From positions 3,458 to 67,457 of the forward strand of contig CALVYK010000006.1 of NCBI GenBank assembly GCA_944372195.1: a DNA stretch of 64,000 nt, written 5' to 3'. How positions within the stretch are numbered: position 1 is the first letter of the stretch; each line of letters starts with the position of its first letter. The position numbers were made by a program, and so were the translations under genes. Positions 3,570-48,752 of the stretch are shown piece by piece. The notes beneath the pieces were generated by a model that made no database searches, was not told the DNA's origin, and saw only the letters and a program-made list of their open reading frames with translations. This DNA comes from an uncultured Bacilli bacterium (GTDB lineage Bacteria; Bacillota_I; Bacilli_A; RF39; UBA660).

Positions 3570-4037
3570 GCATTTTTTCATTTTTTCTTTTATAGCTTCT
3601 GCATAAATAGGGTATAAATATTTATTCTTATCATTTTCAAGCCTTATAAGTAACAATTTTAAATTAAAATATTCAGCCATTAAAAAATCGTATTCCGTTA
3701 AATCATAGTCAAGGTCTGTAACATCTCTATATTTTTCTAAAAAATCGTTTCTTTCTAAAACTGCAAAATCAAGAACTTTAATAATGTTTCTATCACCCAA
3801 AAAGCTTTGATATTCATCTTCACCAAAAGCTACAATATCTTGTGGAATGTCATTTTTAAAATCATAGTCTGCTTCATACTCTATAATTTTGGTTGGAAGA
3901 ATGAATTTAATAGAATTGTCATTTTCTTTATATTCATTTACCCCAAAATCACTTCTGAAATCGCCTATATCCTCTATTATAATTTTAACATTATCGGGAA
4001 TATTCTTTAATAAGTCTTTTAATTCACCCACATTCAT
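3552..4037 (-). CDS. Hypothetical protein
   Basis: Track ORF; leader aagaaagaggtttaaaATG. Confidence 0.65.
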   Translation of the reverse strand: MNVGELKDLLKNIPDNVKIIIEDIGDFRSDFGVNEYKENDNSIKFILPTKIIEYEADYDFKNDIPQDIVAFGEDEYQSFLGDRNIIKVLDFAVLERNDFLEKYRDVTDLDYDLTEYDFLMAEYFNLKLLLIRLENDKNKYLYPIYAEAIKEKMKKCLTKKY

Positions 4038-27106: not shown

Positions 27107-27904
27107 CTATTTGTCAATATTTTTATAAAATTCTTCTGCTATATCAATAATTGATAATTGTTTAAGTTTATCTACAGGAATAGAACGCATTAAATTATAA
27201 ACATTAATTTCAAATTCATTTTTAAAAGATGGTCTCTTTTCACTACCACCTTCAATTTGGTGTTTAATACCACGCATATATTTCCAGAAATTATAATAGC
27301 AGGTTTTCATTTTAACTCTAAAGTTGTTAGTGTCTTGAATAACCCATCCTTCATGTCTTATAGAATAATCATTTTTAACAGATTGTCTCCATGAGTATAA
27401 ATCATCCCAATTGTTAAAAGTATAATCTAATACTTTACACTTAACTTTGAGTTCTTTAGCCAATTTCTGAACTTCTTCATATGGCATAAATTCATCTTCA
27501 AATTTATTTTTAACTATATCCAATAAAACTAATTGATTTTCACTATATCTGATAATATGTGGGTCTAAATCTTGATTAATACATTCAAAAATTAAAGTAC
27601 AATTATTGGTTTTACAAAATTCTTTTACCCTATTTTTAAAAGTCTTGTCAAGTTTATCTAATTCTTGTTTTATCATATTGACAAAATCTCCTTTATCAGT
27701 AGATTTTGACGCTATAAATAAATCATCTGTTTTAGGGTTATATGACATTAAGGCTAAAAATCCATTTTCTTTTTTAAAACAATATACAGGAAATAACAAT
27801 TTTTGTTTTAAAACTGCTGATTTCCAATCATAGCCATTTTCTGGAATATCATTTTTAATATCTATATTTAACTTCATTTTACTCTCACTTTCTAATATTA
27901 CCAT
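27107..27904 (-). CDS. RNA ligase, Rnl1-like catalytic portion
   Basis: Motif I FKKENGFLAL (compare T4 Rnl1 TKEDGSL), EGWVIQD, RVKMKTCYY. The N-terminal part of the domain lies in the preceding ORF. Confidence 0.7.
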   Translation of the reverse strand: MVILESESKMKLNIDIKNDIPENGYDWKSAVLKQKLLFPVYCFKKENGFLALMSYNPKTDDLFIASKSTDKGDFVNMIKQELDKLDKTFKNRVKEFCKTNNCTLIFECINQDLDPHIIRYSENQLVLLDIVKNKFEDEFMPYEEVQKLAKELKVKCKVLDYTFNNWDDLYSWRQSVKNDYSIRHEGWVIQDTNNFRVKMKTCYYNFWKYMRGIKHQIEGGSEKRPSFKNEFEINVYNLMRSIPVDKLKQLSIIDIAEEFYKNIDK

Positions 27905-29445
27905 CCAAAAAATTTATTATATCCTCTAGCTATTACTTCACCATTATCTTCATTAACAAATAAACCTCTAGCTTTACAAGTAAGGTTATCCCATTTACCT
28001 CTTTGGAATGCTTTTCTTGTAAAATTGTATGAAGCAATATTATTTTCTAATATTTTCTTTTGGATATTTTTTGATTTTTTTAATTGTGCTAAAATATCAT
28101 TTTGGTTTAAATCAAGGTCTAATTGTTGAGTTTCAGGCACAACTAAATTTTCGTCATAGACATTACTTGGTTGTAATATTTCTTTAACTGAATTATCTTC
28201 ATTAATTTCAATAATTCTAAGAAATTTACCATATTCTGGTTCATCACATAAATTATAAATTCTATCACTTGCTTTAATAGGCAATTTAAAAATATTTCTA
28301 TGTGAATGGATTTGGATATAGTTATCGGGTGTATTGTTGTTCCAAGAGTTATAAATTTCTTCTAAATTTTCATATTTTCCAACACCTTTTATAAACTCTT
28401 GTGTAGGAGTAAAGATGGTTGGAACATTAGGTAAACCGCCATGTGTAATAAGATATACATTTTTACCGAACTTAAAATAAGCCATTTGTGCTAATTTTCT
28501 ACAAAATTGTCTAAGACTTCCTTTATCAATATCTTGTATTTCGGGAATTGTCTTTTCTTTGAATAAAGAGCTTTTAATATTGTTTGAAGATAATTCATTT
28601 AACTGTGTTTTTGTTAAATATTTTTTAAATACCGCTTTATCTTCTAAGTCAATATTAACTTCTTTATATTCATTTGAACAATATTTCTTTAAATGAGCGC
28701 AATGATTGCCTTCTAAGATTAGAAAGTTTGGCTTATTCATATGTTCTAAAAGAAATTCTAATACCTCTTTATTTTGAATACCTCTATCTATATAATCACC
28801 AGTAAAAATATACTTATAACTATCATTAATAGGATTTGCTTTAAAATAGTCTTCAATTGGGGCAAAACAACCATGTACATCCCCAAAAACTACTATTTTT
28901 TTATATTCATTTGTAAAATCGTATAAAACATTTTGTTTTAATACTTCTAAAGCTTCATTACGATTTAAAATTGTAAATTTATTACTTACTTCTTTACAAC
29001 TTGCTATATTTTTTTCTGCTTCAAATACAGCATGCATTTTATGTAATACTTCTTCTGGTACGAATTTGTAAGAATCACGTTCTCTATTTCTTTTTAAACA
29101 TACATCTAAAGAAACATCAGTAAAATCTACAATATAAGCCCTATATCTGTATTTATCAATTAACTTTTTATATCTTGTTAAAAGTTCTTTTTTATAATGA
29201 GTAGCATTAACTATTACAAATTCACCTCGTTCCATACGTTGTTCAAGAATTTCAAATAACATAGTCCATACTTTACCATCATTTTTTTGAGTAATTTCAA
29301 GATTACCATTTAATGATGTAACGGGTGATTGAAGTAATAATCTTATATTGTCAGCAGAGAGTGAATACTGTTCTAAATTATTTTGTTTAATCCAATAATC
29401 TTTACCACTTGCTGGCATTCCACGTGTTAATAATAAAGTTCTCAT
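27898..29445 (-). CDS. Polynucleotide kinase-phosphatase (Pnkp) plus N-terminal part of the ligase domain
   Basis: P-loop TRGMPASGKD; phosphoesterase motifs VVFGDVHGC, GDYIDRG, EGNHC, ITHGG. The C-terminus FTRKAFQRGKWDNLTCKARGLF...GYNKFF resembles the Rnl1 N-terminal region. Confidence 0.8.
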   Translation of the reverse strand: MRTLLLTRGMPASGKDYWIKQNNLEQYSLSADNIRLLLQSPVTSLNGNLEITQKNDGKVWTMLFEILEQRMERGEFVIVNATHYKKELLTRYKKLIDKYRYRAYIVDFTDVSLDVCLKRNRERDSYKFVPEEVLHKMHAVFEAEKNIASCKEVSNKFTILNRNEALEVLKQNVLYDFTNEYKKIVVFGDVHGCFAPIEDYFKANPINDSYKYIFTGDYIDRGIQNKEVLEFLLEHMNKPNFLILEGNHCAHLKKYCSNEYKEVNIDLEDKAVFKKYLTKTQLNELSSNNIKSSLFKEKTIPEIQDIDKGSLRQFCRKLAQMAYFKFGKNVYLITHGGLPNVPTIFTPTQEFIKGVGKYENLEEIYNSWNNNTPDNYIQIHSHRNIFKLPIKASDRIYNLCDEPEYGKFLRIIEINEDNSVKEILQPSNVYDENLVVPETQQLDLDLNQNDILAQLKKSKNIQKKILENNIASYNFTRKAFQRGKWDNLTCKARGLFVNEDNGEVIARGYNKFFGW

Positions 29446-40408: not shown

Positions 40409-43400
40409 TTAAAAATTATAATATTGCCTATCCTCTGCTTGTCTAGCATCAGACCAATCACTTTTCTTAGTTAAAAAGCCTACAACTCTCATATAACGGT
40501 CTATATCTGTGCTATTACAATTAGGACATTCTTTGGCTTTACCTACAAATATTTTATTGCAATTCTTACATTGATTTATTTCGTAATTAAATGCAAAATA
40601 TTTTACTCCAGATTCTATTATATTTTTAGTTAATTCTTTCATTGTATCTAAAGAGATTTTATTATCAACAGTAATATGCATTATGCTACCGCCAGAGCAG
40701 TATTTATCCATTGAACTAGATAATAGAATACGGTCTAATAAATTACAGGATTTTGAAAGGGGTATAAATTGATTAGAATACATAGTATAATCATTATTAT
40801 ACCCTAATATTTTATCCTTTGCAGCAAGCTTAACACAAGTATTTTCCCCTGGAATACCCTCTAGGTTACAAGGAATTTTATATTGTTGTGCAAATTCATT
40901 ATTATATTGTTCCATAGTTGACAAGATGTCAGTTGCAACCTTCAAACCATCTTCATTTACAATATCATAACCTAAAATTTCACAAGCTTCATATATACCT
41001 ATAAAACCTAAAGTGCTAAATTGTTTAGTTAAATCCATATAATCATTAGAATAAAGTGGTAAATGACCTTTTTTAATACTTGCCTTTAACAAACATCTTT
41101 TTGCGTAATTTATATCTTGCGCCAAATCTACCAAAGTTTTAAGTTCAATTTTAAAGTTGTCTAAACTATCTTTATTTTTATATGCTAATTGTGGTAAATT
41201 GATACAAACTACACCTGAACTACCTATAGAATCACTAGCACCACCAAAAGAATTAAAAAATTTGTTAGAAGCGTCACTGCGCAAGCGGCAGTTTGACAAA
41301 TGTATACCATTGGGGAGAGTAAAATAATGGTCTTCTTCATCCGCCATTTCCATGCAATATACAAATTCTTTGTTGTAATCTTTTATTTGTTCTATAGAAT
41401 TTACTTTAATAAATAGTTGGTTATGTTTTACTTTTAATATATTTTCAATTTTTTTATGTCTATTAAACATAAAACGTATATGATAAATAAGGTTATTACG
41501 TTTATGTTCTTGCCCACGTATTACTATAGGTTCATCAACTCTAGTATCAACAGATATATTGCAAAATCCTCCTAACGAAACTATTAAGCACTCTATTGAT
41601 TTCATTAAAGCTTCTGAAGAAGTATAAACTATATTATATTCAGAATGACCGTCTGTTGCATGCAATCCATCTAAAATGCCTTTTCTAAATTCCTCTGTTT
41701 GACAAAGAACATTTAAATTAAGGTTTTTATTTTCAGCATGCCCTGTTATACACCAGCGTTCAATAAAATCACCTATTTCTACCCCATTAACCTTAGCAAA
41801 TACAACATTATTAACTGATGGGTTAATACGCAATGTCCTTTCGGGCGCAATTTGGCGTATAGCTTCTTTTAGTATAGACTCTAATTTAACAACTTTTTTA
41901 TCGTTTAAAGACAATGTTAATTCACAACCATTGTTATCTTTTCTGCGATATATATTTCCATCGCCTAAATATGCACCAACTAATACACCTTGTTCATATG
42001 TTAATCTTTCATCTCTTTCAGTAATAACTGGAAGAGTCAAAGTGCTCATTAATAGATAGTCAGTATCTTTTAGCTCATCAGCACGAATTTCACCCCTATC
42101 TGTTAAAAGCATGTGGTCTTCAGTGCAGATAAAGTGTTGATGTTTAACAGTATTGATATTAAACATTTTTTTATTTCCACGAGGAACTTTAATAACTCTA
42201 GCAGAAGACCAAGCACCATTATTCATGACTTTAAGATTTGGTCTATTTATAGTTAGTTCACTCATTAAGTCGATAAAAGAGATTAAACGAACACCATTTT
42301 TACTATCTTTTACTAATACTTCTTGTTCACCATCAAAACAGCAAGAACTTAGTATACTTGTATCTCCACCAAAAATATTAATAAAACCACGTGCTTCATT
42401 CTTTTTACAAATAAAATCTAAAAAGTCTTTATCTTGTATAATGGTTTTACCTGTTTCTTCATCAACTTTAGTAGAAAAACAAGCGGTTGTAACTGGGAAT
42501 GTGTGTACCGTTCTTTCAGCCTCTTCATTCATAATGTCTAAATATATTTCTTGAACTTTATTAACAGTATCTATATCGGTACCATATCTTTTACCATCAA
42601 TAATTAATTCTGTTTCAGCTATAATATTTTCTAAAAAGTATTTATCAAATATACTTACATTAGTAAATAAACTTTGATTTCCTCTGCAAGCTTGATTTAC
42701 TCTATATATGAAAGATGTTAATTCTTCTTTAAAATGAGTCCAACAATCATCTTCTGATTCTAAATGTGTATGTGAGTCTGTAAAATCATTTTGTATCATT
42801 TTTTTGAGAAATACACTAGCCACTACCAACAAATTAGATATACCTGTAGCACCAGCAGTAGCATTTCCAGCTATTAAAAGATATGCTTCTATAATATCAA
42901 AATAACTTCTTAAATATTTAGGTGGAAGTGTATCATTAGTATCAATACCCACTAGCCCTTGCATAGCTATATTAAGACAAGAATGATTATAACAATAACT
43001 CATAGGATATGAAATATAATGCATGTCATTAACATAAAAGGCACCAGATATTTGATATTCTATAAAATTATTGGCTTTTTCTAAACTTCTATTTTTTTTA
43101 AGCCATTTCCATATTCTATAGTATGATTGCATTAGGGCATGAGGTTTAGCAATTTCGTGCATAATAGTTATAGCTGTTGTTTTACCTGCATTAGCATTAC
43201 TATCAATAGAGCCATTTGCCACACTATTAGCATTAACCATTCTCTTAATAGCTTTATTAATATCTAACTGTTCACCAATTCCATTTAAATTGAATATGTC
43301 AACATCATATTTATCTAACATTTTTAACATGAAGTCTTTAAATTCTTTTTGATAAGATTGAGATTTAATATAGTTTTCAATTAAAATTTTATTGTTAAGT

Positions 43401-43414
43401 TTTAAATTTTCCAT
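40409..43414 (-). CDS. nrdD: Anaerobic (class III) ribonucleoside-triphosphate reductase, interrupted by an in-frame intein
   Basis: Start moved to MENLKLNN (ATG 43414, RBS aaaaagga) because the promoter lies inside the track ORF. The C-terminus has CKNCN..CPNC and a glycyl-radical-like RVVGFL. The active-site SSCCRL motif is split by the intein. Confidence 0.9.
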   Translation of the reverse strand: MENLKLNNKILIENYIKSQSYQKEFKDFMLKMLDKYDVDIFNLNGIGEQLDINKAIKRMVNANSVANGSIDSNANAGKTTAITIMHEIAKPHALMQSYYRIWKWLKKNRSLEKANNFIEYQISGAFYVNDMHYISYPMSYCYNHSCLNIAMQGLVGIDTNDTLPPKYLRSYFDIIEAYLLIAGNATAGATGISNLLVVASVFLKKMIQNDFTDSHTHLESEDDCWTHFKEELTSFIYRVNQACRGNQSLFTNVSIFDKYFLENIIAETELIIDGKRYGTDIDTVNKVQEIYLDIMNEEAERTVHTFPVTTACFSTKVDEETGKTIIQDKDFLDFICKKNEARGFINIFGGDTSILSSCCFDGEQEVLVKDSKNGVRLISFIDLMSELTINRPNLKVMNNGAWSSARVIKVPRGNKKMFNINTVKHQHFICTEDHMLLTDRGEIRADELKDTDYLLMSTLTLPVITERDERLTYEQGVLVGAYLGDGNIYRRKDNNGCELTLSLNDKKVVKLESILKEAIRQIAPERTLRINPSVNNVVFAKVNGVEIGDFIERWCITGHAENKNLNLNVLCQTEEFRKGILDGLHATDGHSEYNIVYTSSEALMKSIECLIVSLGGFCNISVDTRVDEPIVIRGQEHKRNNLIYHIRFMFNRHKKIENILKVKHNQLFIKVNSIEQIKDYNKEFVYCMEMADEEDHYFTLPNGIHLSNCRLRSDASNKFFNSFGGASDSIGSSGVVCINLPQLAYKNKDSLDNFKIELKTLVDLAQDINYAKRCLLKASIKKGHLPLYSNDYMDLTKQFSTLGFIGIYEACEILGYDIVNEDGLKVATDILSTMEQYNNEFAQQYKIPCNLEGIPGENTCVKLAAKDKILGYNNDYTMYSNQFIPLSKSCNLLDRILLSSSMDKYCSGGSIMHITVDNKISLDTMKELTKNIIESGVKYFAFNYEINQCKNCNKIFVGKAKECPNCNSTDIDRYMRVVGFLTKKSDWSDARQAEDRQYYNF
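41291..42340 (-). mobile_element. Intein (350 aa) with LAGLIDADG homing-endonuclease domain in NrdD
   Basis: Begins CFDGEQEVLV and ends HLSN, followed by +1 Cys. Excision restores LSSC-CRLRSD. Two LAGLIDADG motifs are present: LVGAYLGDGNI and ILDGLHATDGH. Confidence 0.9.
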
Positions 43415-43443
43415 TCTTACATCCTTTTTTAAACTATATACAC

Positions 43444-43471
43444 ATAATATCATATAAAAATTATTTGTCAA
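43444..43471 (-). promoter_or_regulatory. Promoter TTGACA-N16-TGaTATTAT for nrdD
   Basis: -35 at 43466-43471, -10 at 43444-43449. Confidence 0.65.
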
Positions 43472-44933: not shown

Positions 44934-45476
44934 CTAAATGTTTTTATGAATATTAGCTGTACAATTGTTGTCTATATATTGCTTAATTTCTTCCCAAGAT
45001 ACTGGTTCATATTCCCAGCAATCTACACCTACATCTGTTGATAAACAATAATCATTAAGTTTAGCATGAGTGTGTCCATGTAGTGCATATCCACCTTTAT
45101 AAAAATTATACCATTCTAATAGAGGATAATGCGTTAAATGTATTGTATCACTTCCAATATTAAGAATTTTACTTTCTCTAACATCCAATAATAACCCTTC
45201 TTTTTGACATTTTATAAGATGTTGTTTATTATCATGATTTCCTAATATATATGACTTACGACCATTTAACTGCTTAAAAATATTTTTATAGTTTTCATAG
45301 CTTTGGTTCCAAGCTAAATCACCTAAAAAATATACTACATCTTCTTTTTTAACTAATTTATTATATCTATCAATAATATCCTCATCCATATATTCTATAG
45401 AACTATATGGACGATTAGATAATTTTATTATATTTTTATGACCGAAGTGTTGGTCTGATGTAAACCATATTGTCAT
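44934..45476 (-). CDS. Metallophosphoesterase (YfcE/MJ0936-like)
   Basis: FTSDQHFGH, FLGDLAW, GNHDN, LTHYP, HGHTH. Confidence 0.8.
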   Translation of the reverse strand: MTIWFTSDQHFGHKNIIKLSNRPYSSIEYMDEDIIDRYNKLVKKEDVVYFLGDLAWNQSYENYKNIFKQLNGRKSYILGNHDNKQHLIKCQKEGLLLDVRESKILNIGSDTIHLTHYPLLEWYNFYKGGYALHGHTHAKLNDYCLSTDVGVDCWEYEPVSWEEIKQYIDNNCTANIHKNI

Positions 45477-45502
45477 TTATTTTGTGAACTTTCTGTTTAA
45501 AA

Positions 45503-45574
45503 TTGCGGTGAGTGGACTTGAACCACTGACCTTTGGGGTATGAACCCAACAAGCTACCACTGCTCTACACCGCT
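45503..45574 (-). tRNA. tRNA-Met (CAT) with initiator-like features
   Basis: Anticodon arm TTGGG-TTCATAC-CCCAA (three G:C pairs next to the loop), A1xA72 mismatch, T arm AGTGG-TTCAAGT-CCACT. Confidence 0.75.
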
Positions 45575-45605
45575 ATGTATGTAACTGTATTATTATAATA
45601 AGGTG

Positions 45606-45907
45606 AAAAATATTGTCGACTTGTGAGACTTGCACTCATTTTTCCCTTACCCTAAAGGGTGTTTTACTATATAAACTATCAGTCGTTAGTAGATGCTTAT
45701 AATGTATGGTGCCGAATACTTCGGCATATATGGTTTTACCATCCAACCATAAAGGGATTCCACATTCATTTAGCCTATTTCAACCACAGACTTTGCAATC
45801 ATATTTATCCTAGTGCTCTATAGGTTTAGTATACATATTAACTATAGGTTGCTAAACATATCTAATTAAGCGTTAATTAGAAAACCGTTCTTATTTCAGC
45901 TCACAAG
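45606..45907 (-). ncRNA. Unclassified ~290-nt structured RNA
   Basis: No ORF and locally GC-richer. An 8-bp terminal helix forms between 45900-45907 and 45620-45627, followed by a T-run. Perfect hairpins lie at 45862-45880, 45730-45742, 45710-45726 and 45649-45660. A T-arm-like TGAG-TGCAAGT-CTCA lies near the 3' end. Confidence 0.55.
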
Positions 45908-45975
45908 AAATATTATACTGTAAATTCTGATGTAGTTTGTACTAGATATAATTATTATATATCAAACTTCTAAAA

Positions 45976-46064
45976 TGGGTGGACAGACAGGGCTTGAACC
46001 TGCACTTACTTAGTGTAAATCGGAGTCACAATCCGAAGCGTCTACCAATTTCGCCACTGCCCAC
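45976..46064 (-). tRNA. tRNA-His (GTG) with class II (long variable arm) Leu-like body
   Basis: G-1, acceptor TGGGCAG/CTGTCCA, C73, encoded CCA. D arm GCG-AAATTGGTAGA-CGC, anticodon arm TCGGA-TTGTGAC-TCCGA, variable arm T-TTAC-ACTAA-GTAA-GT, T arm GCAGG-TTCAAGC-CCTGT. Confidence 0.65.
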
Positions 46065-46069
46065 ATAAA

Positions 46070-46158
46070 TGGAGGAAGGCATTGGACTTGCACCAAACCC
46101 ACGTAAATGAGCGTCAGTCTTAGCAGGACGACCCAGTACCTTGACTGGTTTACCTTCC
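46070..46158 (-). tRNA. tRNA-Ser (GCT)-like, non-canonical
   Basis: Acceptor GGAAGGT/GCCTTCC, encoded CCA, loop CTGCTAA, long variable arm. However, the anticodon stem has a bulged T and the T loop reads TGCAAGT (G at position 55). Confidence 0.55.
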
Positions 46159-46240: not shown

Positions 46241-46247
46241 ATGAATT

Positions 46248-46335
46248 TAGGTTGAGTTGGAGTTGCACCAACAAAAACTAAAAAAGGTTATGATGTTACG
46301 CACCATCCCGACTAGCTGATATTCGGCTTCAACCT
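46248..46335 (-). tRNA. tRNA-Tyr (GTA)-like element, non-canonical (possible pseudo-tRNA or mimic)
   Basis: Acceptor AGGTTGA/TCAACCT, A73, D arm CCGA/TCGG, anticodon arm ATGGT-GCGTAAC-ATCAT (C33 instead of U33), unstructured T-rich 17-nt variable region, T loop TGCAACT. Confidence 0.4.
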
Positions 46336-46343
46336 ATATAAAC

Positions 46344-46459
46344 GGAATACTTATATGTGCTCTACCATTGAGCTACCTCATGAAATAAATTTCATGGGAT
46401 TGGATTCGAACCAATAATACCAAGCTTAAAAAACTAATATATTTTGCTGTGTGTATTCC
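46344..46459 (-). ncRNA. Circularly permuted tRNA-like RNA (YrlA / Y-RNA-like candidate)
   Basis: 5' GGAATAC (46453-46459) pairs with 3' GTATTCC (46344-46350). Inside, in order: variable region, T arm ATTGG-TTCGAAT-CCAAT (46399-46415), acceptor-like hairpin CCCATGAAA-TTTA-TTTCATGAGG, D arm GCTC-AATGGTA-GAGC. Confidence 0.65.
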
Positions 46460-46651: not shown

Positions 46652-46946
46652 TGGTGGAGGTGGAGAGAATTGAACTCTCGTGCAAAAATATTTTTATAAC
46701 ACTTTAATTACAAGTTTATCATGTTTTTTACTTTCCTTCTAATGTTTACATGCAACACCCTAAAAGTCAGCATTCAATTTATACTAAATTGAAAAAAAAT
46801 CACCTAAACAAATAAAAATGAGATTTTATGAACATTTAATTACTTTACTAATTACGCAGCATTTATTTTTTTGTCGTTTTTGAAGTGTACACTCACTTAC
46901 TTGTAGTAATTATAAAAAGATATTTTTGTCAATACCATACACCCCC
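46652..46946 (-). ncRNA. ssrA: tmRNA (SsrA), 295 nt, phage-encoded
   Basis: 5' GGGGGTG pairs with 3' CACCTCC-A-CCA, including a G3:U70 wobble. T arm GAGAG-TTCAATT-CTCTC. 5' GGTATTGAC resembles the conserved GGATTCGAC. Helix 2 is CAAAAATA/TATTTTTG. The tag frame AAC GAC AAA AAA ATA AAT GCT GCG TAA ends at 46852. Confidence 0.85.
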
Positions 46947-47004: not shown

Positions 47005-47033
47005 ATTATAGCACTATTATTTTTATTTGTCAA
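47005..47033 (-). promoter_or_regulatory. Promoter TTGACA-N17-TATAAT heading the RNA-gene cluster
   Basis: -35 at 47028-47033, -10 at 47005-47010; about 55 nt upstream of the tmRNA 5' end. Confidence 0.7.
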
Positions 47034-47039
47034 GTGGTT

Positions 47040-48752
47040 TTAAAAATTTTTTATATTATTATCGCAAATGCAATATTCTTTAAGTGTTTCGACCTGTTCA
47101 AAGAATAATTTATCTAAATCCTTAGAATCTAAATCTTCAAAATTATCTACTTTCATATAAATATCAAGAAGAACCTTTTTTACAACTTCATTTACTTCAT
47201 CATTATACAATAAATTAGAAAAGAAATTAGTAAAATCTATTTTTTGTGATTGAAAACTTTTAATATACGGATATATTAACTCTAAGAATATATTTTTGTA
47301 AAAAGAGTCCATATAATTTATAGCTTTAAGTCTTATTAATTCTACCGCTCTATTATTTGAAAAAATAGGACTAAAACATGTTGCTAATAATATTTTTTGT
47401 GCAAAAACAGGTCTACTGTCATAATGTATATCTTTTTTAACTATATCTTCTTGTTTTTCTGTGTGCCATTTTATTTTTTTATAAATATCATTTTCAGAAA
47501 TTATAAGTTTATTAGCAACAAGTTCAATATATTGTTTTCTATCCATAAAATTTGAGATATTAGCTAATATTGGAACCAAAAAATTTAAACAGCTTGTTTT
47601 TTCTTCAATATTCTTTGGATTTATATTCTTTAACTTTAAATCAATTAAAAATTCATTATAAATTTTTGAATGTTTAATTAAATTATTAAAATCTTCTCTT
47701 GTATGATTTGTAAGGTACATATCAGCGTCACATTTTGACCCATCCTTATTTCTCAAATCAATTATATACACTTTAGCATAAGGTATATTGCTTTTGATAG
47801 TAGCAACAAGCTTATCTAAAGATGTTAAGCCTTTTGTATCTGGTCTTAAAGGTGCATCATCTTCTAAACAATAATAGAACTTATCTGTATATTTTTTTAA
47901 CATATTAACTTGACAATCTGATATATTAAGCCCATCTAAACATACAGCATTAACAATTCCCTTTTGATGACATTTAATTACATCAATATTACCTTCAACT
48001 AAAATAACTGAATTAAAATTTTTTATATATTTTTTTGCTTGATATAAACCAAATATAAATTGACTTTTTTCATATATTTCTGTGTTAGAAGTGTGCATAT
48101 ACTTATAGTTGTCACTATCTACGTATAATCTTCCTGTAAAACTAAGTATATTACCATATTCATCAATTCTTGGGAAAATAACTCTATCATTTTTAAATTT
48201 AGCATGATAATTGTTATTTAAATCTGGGACTATTAATCCTAACCTTTTCAAGCTATCTTTAAAAGGAAGTTTATTTATGCCACATCCTATTTTAAAATCT
48301 TCTATTATCTTAGGAGATAATCCTCTTATTTTAGTCAAATAATTATAAGCTTCGTTATTACCCTTTAGTGATAACTGAAATTTTTCACACATAAGTTTGT
48401 TAATATCATATAAAGACTTTTTTACTTTATATTTTTCTTCTTCTTCGGGTGATAATTCAATAGTAACATCATATAACTTTGCTATTGCTTCTACAGCTTC
48501 ACCAAAAGATACATTAAAAAATCTTTTGTAAAAAGAGAATACATCACCACCTGTGTTACAAGACCCCCAACATCTCCATAAACCATATTGTGTATCTATT
48601 GAGAATGAAGGTCTATTTTCATTATGAAAAGGGCATAATGCAAATGCTCTATTACTACCAGTATTTTTTAAGTCTGGCAAATATTTTTTATAAAAATCAA
48701 AAAAATTAATTTTAGATTTAATTTCGTCTAATTTTTCACGTGTGTATAACAT
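47040..48752 (-). CDS. dnaG: DnaG-type DNA primase
   Basis: CHC2 zinc finger CPFHNENRPSFSI...WRCWGSC; TOPRIM VILVEGNIDV ... LEDDAP. Confidence 0.85.
   Translation of the reverse strand: MLYTREKLDEIKSKINFFDFYKKYLPDLKNTGSNRAFALCPFHNENRPSFSIDTQYGLWRCWGSCNTGGDVFSFYKRFFNVSFGEAVEAIAKLYDVTIELSPEEEEKYKVKKSLYDINKLMCEKFQLSLKGNNEAYNYLTKIRGLSPKIIEDFKIGCGINKLPFKDSLKRLGLIVPDLNNNYHAKFKNDRVIFPRIDEYGNILSFTGRLYVDSDNYKYMHTSNTEIYEKSQFIFGLYQAKKYIKNFNSVILVEGNIDVIKCHQKGIVNAVCLDGLNISDCQVNMLKKYTDKFYYCLEDDAPLRPDTKGLTSLDKLVATIKSNIPYAKVYIIDLRNKDGSKCDADMYLTNHTREDFNNLIKHSKIYNEFLIDLKLKNINPKNIEEKTSCLNFLVPILANISNFMDRKQYIELVANKLIISENDIYKKIKWHTEKQEDIVKKDIHYDSRPVFAQKILLATCFSPIFSNNRAVELIRLKAINYMDSFYKNIFLELIYPYIKSFQSQKIDFTNFFSNLLYNDEVNEVVKKVLLDIYMKVDNFEDLDSKDLDKLFFEQVETLKEYCICDNNIKNF

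Follow-up and report, generated by a model that had tools for sequence, protein, structure and literature searches.

Introduction

Bacteriophage T4 produces two small stable RNAs, RNAC and RNAD, from its tRNA region; they are co-transcribed, and their biological role is unknown (PMC3014915). In Staphylococcus aureus and Staphylococcus epidermidis, non-proteogenic tRNAGly species work off the ribosome as donors for the peptidoglycan bridge, and their genes carry TGC or TGT in place of TTC in the T-loop and hence give no pseudouridine 55 (PMC7826273). Here we describe a 76-nucleotide (nt) tRNA-like element (TLE) located at 45613-45688 on the minus strand of a 64,000-nt stretch of DNA (contig CALVYK010000006.1, positions 3,458 to 67,457; hereafter, the window). 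The TLE lies in a candidate interval, 45606-45917, for which an original prediction, made from the sequence alone, had proposed an unclassified structured RNA of about 290 nt on the minus strand. The interval is neither a group I intron nor a large structured RNA. It is very probably a composite of a 76-nt tRNA-derived, non-decoding tRNA-like gene and strain-specific debris of a tRNA array, not one RNA.

The interval is located between two tRNA genes, as had been described, namely tRNA-Met(cat) (45502-45575) and tRNA-His(gtg) (45976-46063, 88 nt). Both are minus-strand genes, and the latter has a long variable arm. The enrichment in GC was real and mild (0.32-0.37 versus 0.21-0.28 in the flanking genes). 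The description of the region as free of open reading frames was only loosely true, since frames of 36, 54, and 35 amino acids overlap it. All of the listed motifs, including a duplicated CCCTTTA, were found where the prediction had placed them, and the TATAAT sequence at 45912-45917 was present.

Results

A covarying cloverleaf in the 3′ quarter of the interval

The TLE corresponded to the 3′ quarter of the candidate interval and was its sole conserved portion. Covariance model R1, which was built from six TLE copies, recovered the copy in the window with a score of 81 bits (E 1.6e-17). The element consists of an acceptor stem, a D-arm, a closed hairpin in the position of the anticodon arm, and a T-arm. 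The expectation of an unclassified structured RNA on the minus strand was borne out, with no Rfam match even at E ≤ 10; the conserved RNA measured 76 nt, not about 290 nt. Conservation and covariation among relatives were present for this last quarter and absent for the other three quarters.

When ten distinct TLE members were aligned, compensatory changes were found in 14 of the 20 base pairs, and 90.3% of the cells were paired. None of 500 shuffles reached the observed values, and sliding the pairing partners by 1-3 columns lowered the pairing to 30-43%. RNAalifold independently recovered all four helices, and the minimum free energy (MFE) structure of the isolated 76-nt copy from the window was the cloverleaf (-14.1 kcal/mol).

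The acceptor 5′ strand CGACU (45681-45685) pairs with the 3′ strand AGUCG (45617-45621). All six acceptor pairs varied among the members, five of them with compensatory changes, and the stem variants included CGACU/AGUCG, GUGU.C/G.ACAC, and CCCUG/CAGGG, the latter two in related loci designated L029 and L041, respectively. In the D-arm, GUUU-AUAUAGUA-AAAC (45661-45676), the inner pair covaried among U-A, A-U, and G-C, and the loop AUAUAGUA has A-G in place of G18-G19 of tRNAs. Two short motifs that had been likened to group I intron R and S elements belong to this cloverleaf: AACGACTGATAG forms the acceptor 5′ strand and TATATAGT the D-loop.

The middle hairpin, CCCUU-UAGGGU-AAGGG (about 45644-45660; alternatively ACCC-UUUA-GGGU), occupies the anticodon-arm position. 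It was retained in every member, with variation in sequence, length (12-20 nt), and loop size (4-8 nt): loops of 4, 6, 7, or 8 nt were closed by stems of 4-7 base pairs (bp). The loop sequence was not conserved, and position 33 was A in most members. Because this hairpin varies in both length and loop, the TLE cannot decode like a normal tRNA.

The sequence UGAG-UGCAAGU-CUCA (45624-45638), which the original prediction had called T-arm-like, is a genuine T-arm with a covarying stem; the stem variants were UGAG/CUCA, GUAG/CUAC, UCGG/CCGA, and UAGG/CCUA. Its loop reads UGC where tRNAs read UUC (T-psi-C). The T-loop was UGCAAGU in seven of the ten members and UGAAAGU or UGUAAAU in the rest. The motif GTGCAANTC occurred four times in the window compared with 0.88 expected.

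Relationship of the TLE to tRNAs

The TLE has the four-helix cloverleaf of standard tRNA geometry, as judged by covariation, RNAalifold, and the MFE structure. It lacks the 7-nt anticodon loop with U33, purine 37, and 5-bp stem, and in place of G18-G19 and T54-psi55-C56 it has A-G and U-G-C, respectively. The tRNA family RF00005 (gathering threshold, 29 bits) gave no match on 45613-45688 even at E ≤ 10. ARAGORN missed the element at its default setting and drew the cloverleaf only at thresholds of 80-85%, with an 8-nt loop and the label 'tRNA-???'. Judged by its sequence, the TLE is without the features that define a decoding tRNA.

The D-arm of the TLE was identical to that of tRNA-Trp(CCA) in two unrelated IMG/VR phages (L084 and L105), and the same combination of D-loop and T-loop was found in ordinary tRNA-Trp(CCA), tRNA-Thr, tRNA-Ile, and tRNA-Pro genes of unrelated IMG/VR phages. 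The presence of these elbow loops and of the D-arm in ordinary phage tRNAs indicates that the TLE was derived from that tRNA subclass. An antisense tRNA was considered and rejected, because the minus strand alone places a T-loop-like loop beside the 3′ acceptor strand, which matches the orientation of the tRNA-Trp homologues.

Ordinary tRNAs for Trp, Thr, and Ile with a paired deviation, UAG for UGG in the D-loop and UGC for UUC in the T-loop, were observed at 4236-4309 of L084, 2797-2871 of L105, 11655-11729 of L073, and 5444-5518 of L072. On the sequences compared, this pairing suggests a covarying alternative 18:55 elbow contact.

Distribution of the TLE in related phages

Exact look-up of the flanking phosphoesterase revealed the same phage on ENA contigs of approximately 120 kb. 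Locus L021 was identical to the window over the RNA-gene cluster, and L022 represented a sister strain. Phosphoesterase homologues with 55-79% identity led to further lineages (L023-L043). TLE homologues were identified with R1 in L023, L026/27, L032, L033/34, L042, and L043, and more divergent ones in L029/30/31 and L041. The element thus occurred in at least eight related phage lineages, always within a tRNA/transfer-messenger RNA (tmRNA) cluster. It exactly occupied the slot between tRNA-Asp and tRNA-Met in L033, lay directly 3′ of the tmRNA gene in L023 and L041, and was solitary in L026, behind a 12/12 TTGACA-16-TGnTATAAT promoter. L041 had several TLE paralogues.

The copy in L043 was identical to that in the window. 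L022 showed 97.7-98% identity to the window over the 3′ part of the TLE; a recombination junction lay within the D-loop, and the local 5′ acceptor strand was replaced. At 5725-5864 of L022, an 'expanded' variant, in which a CGAC located upstream can pair instead, had an MFE of -42.1 kcal/mol. An IS200/IS605-type miniature element was rejected as a candidate: L032 has a TnpB gene beside its TLE copy, and the window had no similarity to it.

A conserved non-coding block of approximately 330 nt was observed in L023 (3664-4017), L033 (4484-4813), and L041 (4463-4789). It consists of a permuted tRNA-like module followed by an RNA of approximately 260 nt that ends in GUAGG-UGCAAGU-CCUAC and an acceptor-like strand, and the acceptor-like pairing CCCACUU/AGGUGGG shows covariation. 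The permuted module, located at 3664-3760 in L023 and present also in L033 and L041, is flanked by a UUUUUAGUAG/CUACUAGAAAA stem. Rfam gave no match to the block at E ≤ 5, and an nhmmer search of the window found nothing corresponding to it in sequence.

The other three quarters of the interval

The remaining 287 nt (45689-45975) had no homologue in 43 related and comparison loci (464 kb) except for the identical L021 and a 23-nt match in L043, which corresponded to the edge of a tRNA-Thr gene. The window, L022, and L043 share near-identical flanks and differ exactly at this 5′ stretch. The window version contains tRNA-Ser, the long-arm tRNA-His, and the 5′ stretch. In L043, the region from 45745 to approximately 46160 is wholly missing, and an intact 91-nt tRNA-Thr(tgt) lies directly upstream of the identical TLE; in L022, approximately 150 nt of unrelated sequence stands in place of the 5′ stretch. 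L022 and L043 also contain a truncated tRNA-Tyr.

Comparison with L043 identified 45689-45744 (minus strand) as a tRNA-Thr relic with its flanks. All four perfect hairpins of the original prediction were present, and one of them, TGCCGAA-GTA-TTCGGCA (45710-45726), is a relic of the deleted tRNA-Thr: it consists of two acceptor halves joined by a 75-nt internal deletion, and the tRNA-Thr(tgt) of L043 (3689-3779) has flanks identical to those of the hairpin in the window (GTAAAACCATATATGCCGAAGTA...TTCGGCACCAT). The hairpin ATGGT-AAA-ACCAT (45730-45742, minus strand) was not conserved, and its stem is broken in L043 (AATGTAAAACCAT). The hairpin TCTAATTAA-CGC-TTAATTAGA (45861-45881, minus strand), with a perfect 9-bp stem of A and T only, was lineage-specific; neither L022 nor L043 nor any other relative has it.

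The middle hairpin of the TLE (45644-45661) and the tRNA-Thr relic hairpin (45709-45727) also resemble intrinsic terminators on the plus strand, with a stem followed by a T-run. Judged by this arrangement, such sites could halt antisense transcription into the cluster.

The segment 45745-45975 (minus strand) is the tail of a strain-specific indel cassette that extends from 45745 to approximately 46160 and also holds tRNA-Ser(gct) and the long-arm tRNA-His. Within this tail, R1 with filters off detected a candidate degenerate tRNA- or TLE-like paralogue at 45777-45854 on the minus strand (13.0 bits, E 0.016), with an acceptor stem CAACC/GGUUG, a hairpin CCUA-UAGAGCAC-UAGG, and a decayed T-arm. 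In that search, genuine tRNAs of the cluster scored 14-16.6 bits. The candidate, whose 5′ part directly repeats that of the TLE at 75% identity, may be a decayed TLE paralogue.

Comparison of the interval with chance and with databases

The original prediction had closed its RNA with an 8-bp helix between CUUGUGAG (45900-45907) and CUCACAAG (45620-45627) on the minus strand. The complement is present; such long-range 8-mer complements were not enriched (one observed versus 1.27 expected, P = 0.62, dinucleotide shuffles), and the 5′ arm is absent in L043 and L022, although L043 has the entire TLE unchanged and L022 has an identical TLE 3′ part. The 3′ arm is made up of the T-stem 3′ strand and the start of the acceptor 3′ strand, and the helix is therefore mutually exclusive with the covarying cloverleaf.

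Perfect local stems of at least 7 bp were enriched (4 versus 0.23 in 2000 dinucleotide shuffles, P = 0.0005). The folding energy was unremarkable, with z = -0.18 for the 400-nt intergenic stretch, z = -2.04 for the exact 312 nt, for which 5 of 100 shuffles folded equally well, and z = -0.62 for the 5′ 222 nt alone.

No Rfam 15 family matched the candidate interval at the gathering score or at E ≤ 10. The covariance models for group I introns, ROOL, GOLLD, and 6S RNA, classes that had been named as possible matches, as well as those for RNase P and tmRNA, gave no match on 45576-45975, and no split exons were found. The repeats in the interval that could be of iteron or origin type were limited to a 9-nt repeat present twice and weak direct repeats. 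A hammerhead core (CUGAUGA) was rejected by inspection, since the motif here reads CUGAUAG.

Searches with blastn and tblastn against GenBank phages gave no close relative, the matches being limited to ordinary tRNAs. In IMG/VR, scans with an exact 37-mer, two TLE patterns, and the two flanking proteins gave no member of the clade; they yielded only phosphoesterase relatives with at most 43% identity, none with a TLE. A scan of JGI metagenomes with a strict pattern gave two chance matches that were not confirmed by the covariance model. A first scan of GTDB genomes gave no matches, and a second, looser scan gave 28, of which approximately 10 were a MoxR-type ATPase coding motif, three were cobalamin riboswitches, and eight were tRNA-like genes of the candidate phyla radiation (CPR)/Patescibacteria.

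The eight CPR/Patescibacteria genes (L045, L048, L049, L058, L060, L061, L065, and L066) scored 29-46 bits with R1. Their 'anticodons' were UGG, UAG, UGA, CGA, and UAC, and their 5′ leader was complementary to the 3′ acceptor strand. ARAGORN missed seven of the eight, and the Rfam gathering score missed four of the five that were scanned (L045, L048, L049, L058, and L065).

Genomic setting

The window represents an AT-rich phage-like genome (approximately 25% GC) that encodes DnaE, DnaB, DnaG, an intein-containing NrdD, a polynucleotide kinase/RNA ligase, and a sigma factor. The minus-strand RNA-gene cluster is bounded by a primase gene (47040-48752) and the phosphoesterase gene (44934-45476) and comprises, in the order listed, tmRNA, tRNA-Glu, a YrlA-like module, tRNA-Tyr/tRNA-Ser, tRNA-Asn, tRNA-His, the candidate interval, and tRNA-Met. 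A 12/12 consensus promoter (47005-47033, minus strand) lies upstream of the tmRNA gene at the head of the cluster. A promoter-like TCGACA-16-TATAAT sequence (45592-45619, minus strand), identified as a consensus match only (11/12), overlaps the 3′ end of the TLE upstream of tRNA-Met.

The phage-encoded tmRNA (46652-46946, minus strand; Rfam, 61.8 bits) is a gene separate from the candidate interval. It was not detected by ARAGORN at the default setting, whereas the tmRNAs of relatives were; the tmRNA tags of L032 and L041 terminate in ...ALVA or ...AKVA. Two tRNAs with long variable arms, tRNA-Ser(gct) (46070-46158) and tRNA-Tyr(gta) (46247-46336), both on the minus strand, were found by relaxed ARAGORN only (85% threshold) and were missed by default ARAGORN and by Rfam even at E ≤ 10. 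Their T-loops read UGCAAGU/UGCAACU. A weak YrlA-like permuted tRNA module (46356-46422, minus strand; 23.6 bits, E 0.035) has the order T-arm, acceptor-like stem closed by a loop, and D-arm.

In the sister strain L043, tRNA-Asn (94 nt, 3575-3668) and the 91-nt tRNA-Thr were also long-armed; for His, Asn, and Thr tRNAs, arms of this type-II-like form are unusual. The anaerobic ribonucleotide reductase NrdD (40409-43471, minus strand) is interrupted by an intein; intein-bearing and intein-free versions occur in relatives, and LAGLIDADG domains are present. GIY-YIG, NUMOD3-type, and TnpB genes are inserted beside the RNA cluster in different relatives (L023, L027, L032, and L042). A fused polynucleotide kinase/phosphatase/RNA-ligase-like protein (phrog_8238) is encoded at 27898-29445 on the minus strand; the presence of this tRNA-repair-type enzyme fits a phage that faces tRNA-cleaving host defences.

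Discussion

Several observations weigh against the interpretation of the interval as a non-decoding tRNA-like gene accompanied by debris. The base pairs were counted on an alignment fitted to the model, and such a fit favours the structure. In L022, the acceptor 5′ strand is replaced and the R1 score drops to 40 bits; pairing is possible there only with a CGAC approximately 75 nt upstream, across two inserted hairpins, and the TLE gene may therefore tolerate disruption. The local perfect hairpins of the 5′ part exceed chance, and one alone is explained. The MFE structure of the 312 nt contains the closing helix, and an alternative long fold in this one strain is, on modelling grounds, physically possible. 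The UGC T-loop also occurs in apparently normal decoding tRNAs and is no evidence per se for a role off the ribosome.

One alternative, that the TLE is a functionless tRNA pseudogene or at most a processing spacer in a precursor transcript, is unlikely. The array around it is visibly decaying, as seen in the tRNA-Thr relic and in the truncated tRNA-Tyr of L022 and L043, and the replaced acceptor 5′ strand of L022 points in the same direction. Against this, the TLE is retained in at least eight lineages in which the phosphoesterase next to it shares only 55-79% identity, it lies behind a consensus promoter of its own in L026 and has several paralogues in L041, and all four helices carry compensatory changes; a pseudogene would not preserve pairing through double substitutions. 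We regard it as improbable that the TLE functions in decoding, as a tRNA whose anticodon loop has expanded to 8 nt and reads a quadruplet, a frameshift site, or an odd triplet. Relaxed ARAGORN does assign four-base anticodons (AGGG in the window; GAGG, AUGG, and GCGG in relatives), the loop has 7 nt in L029, NNGG occurs in most of these loops, and real tRNAs of other phages have bodies with this elbow. However, the loop size varies, with a 4-bp stem and tetraloop in L041, a 5-bp stem and tetraloop in L032, and possibly 6 nt in the window; nearly every lineage has a different 'anticodon'; most members have A in place of the near-universal U33; and no Rfam tRNA match was obtained even at E ≤ 10.

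Very improbable, too, is the view that the whole of 45606-45917 forms one structured RNA of approximately 300 nt closed by the 8-bp helix. It would account for the MFE structure of the 312 nt (z = -2.04) and the enriched local hairpins, and the approximately 330-nt block of L023, L033, and L041, with its terminal UGCAAGU T-arm and acceptor-like strand, means that long tRNA-tailed RNAs exist in the clade. The helix is nevertheless at chance level (P = 0.62) and consumes the covarying T-stem, and its 5′ arm and surroundings are missing in L043 and L022 despite an identical TLE or TLE 3′ part. The 5′ 287 nt have no homologue among the related loci, the long RNA of the relatives is unmatched in the window, and the folding energies of the 400-nt stretch and of the 5′ part alone are unremarkable (z = -0.18 and -0.62, respectively). 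For a group I intron, intact or as a remnant, the probability is close to nil. The R- and S-element resemblances, noted by eye only, and the homing endonuclease genes (GIY-YIG and NUMOD3-type) that adjoin the cluster in relatives would fit an intron; there is no Rfam group I match at E ≤ 10, no flanking exons were found, and the supposed motifs are an acceptor strand and a D-loop of a covarying cloverleaf.

The composite reading, a tRNA-like gene next to tRNA-array debris, is preferred, and the structure, conservation, covariation, and indel history described above can be extended to expression, processing, and function by inference from sequence only. The cluster would probably be transcribed from the 12/12 promoter upstream of the tmRNA gene, so that the TLE would be transcribed together with the tmRNA/tRNA array, or from its own consensus promoter in L026. 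RNase P and 3′ processing enzymes would excise it like a tRNA; release by the tRNA-processing machinery is expected because the acceptor/T minihelix and the elbow are kept. The TLE would then act off the ribosome as a non-decoding tRNA mimic, because it has no anticodon loop, and it might be a decoy or ligand of some tRNA-binding factor, whether from the host or from the phage, or carry an activated amino acid.

We tentatively propose, as a possibility and not as the expected outcome, that the TLE is the first representative of a class of non-decoding tRNA mimics not described before. Members of such a class would have kept the minihelix and a variant A18/G55 elbow, lost the anticodon loop, and been selected in a clade of AT-rich phages of approximately 120 kb from animal-associated metagenomes, with G3.U70 structural cousins in CPR/Patescibacteria chromosomes. 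They could be decoys for host tRNA-directed defence or toxin enzymes, or off-ribosome aminoacyl carriers.

Phage tRNA clusters are usually annotated with tools of the tRNAscan or ARAGORN type alone. Here, such tools and Rfam overlooked the TLE and two apparently real tRNAs (Ser and Tyr) with UGC T-loops. The variant elbow, with A-G in the D-loop and U-G-C in the T-loop, recurs in unrelated phages and in CPR and is a target for better tRNA gene finders. An intergenic cluster of perfect hairpins may be debris of deleted tRNAs and not one large RNA, which calls for caution. If the TLE is a functional mimic under selection, it would be relevant to the arms race over bacterial defences that target tRNAs and to the ways in which tRNA-like molecules are used off the ribosome.

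Comparison with known systems

The TLE shares the four-helix cloverleaf, the size, and the location in a tRNA array with canonical tRNAs (RF00005) and differs from them in its variable closed hairpin and in the absence of a conserved 7-nt loop, U33, or purine 37. With the phage tRNA subclass that combines the D-loop UAUAUAGUA with the T-loop UGCAAGU, it shares the T-loop and the geometry of the acceptor and T-arm. The CPR/Patescibacteria tRNA-like genes have the same D-loop and T-arm sequence as the TLE and a location like that of tRNA genes. They differ in a G3.U70 acceptor, a 31.39 mismatch, and a 7-nt loop with U33 and pyrimidine 37, and they are cellular and chromosomal, whereas the TLE is viral. 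G3.U70 is the identity pair of alanyl-tRNA synthetase.

YrlA (RF02553) is likewise a non-decoding RNA that mimics the acceptor/T/D core of tRNA. YrlA, however, has a circularly permuted order with ends that pair into a Ro-binding stem, whereas the TLE is unpermuted; the TLE gave no YrlA match, the weak one in the window being elsewhere (46356-46422).

The UGC/UGU T-loop of the staphylococcal non-proteogenic tRNAGly is also found in the TLE. These tRNAs keep a normal Gly anticodon loop and are charged by glycyl-tRNA synthetase, whereas the TLE is without a recognizable anticodon or identity set. Off-ribosome tRNAs of this type serve a Fem-type transferase and bind EF-Tu weakly. Because tRNAs here that look like decoders share the UGC T-loop, it is no more than suggestive of a role off the ribosome.

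The closest phage precedent is RNAC and RNAD of T4, which are likened to the TLE by location, as small RNAs inside a tRNA cluster. RNAC and RNAD are longer, about 120-140 nt, and the TLE differs from them in being a clean 76-nt cloverleaf.

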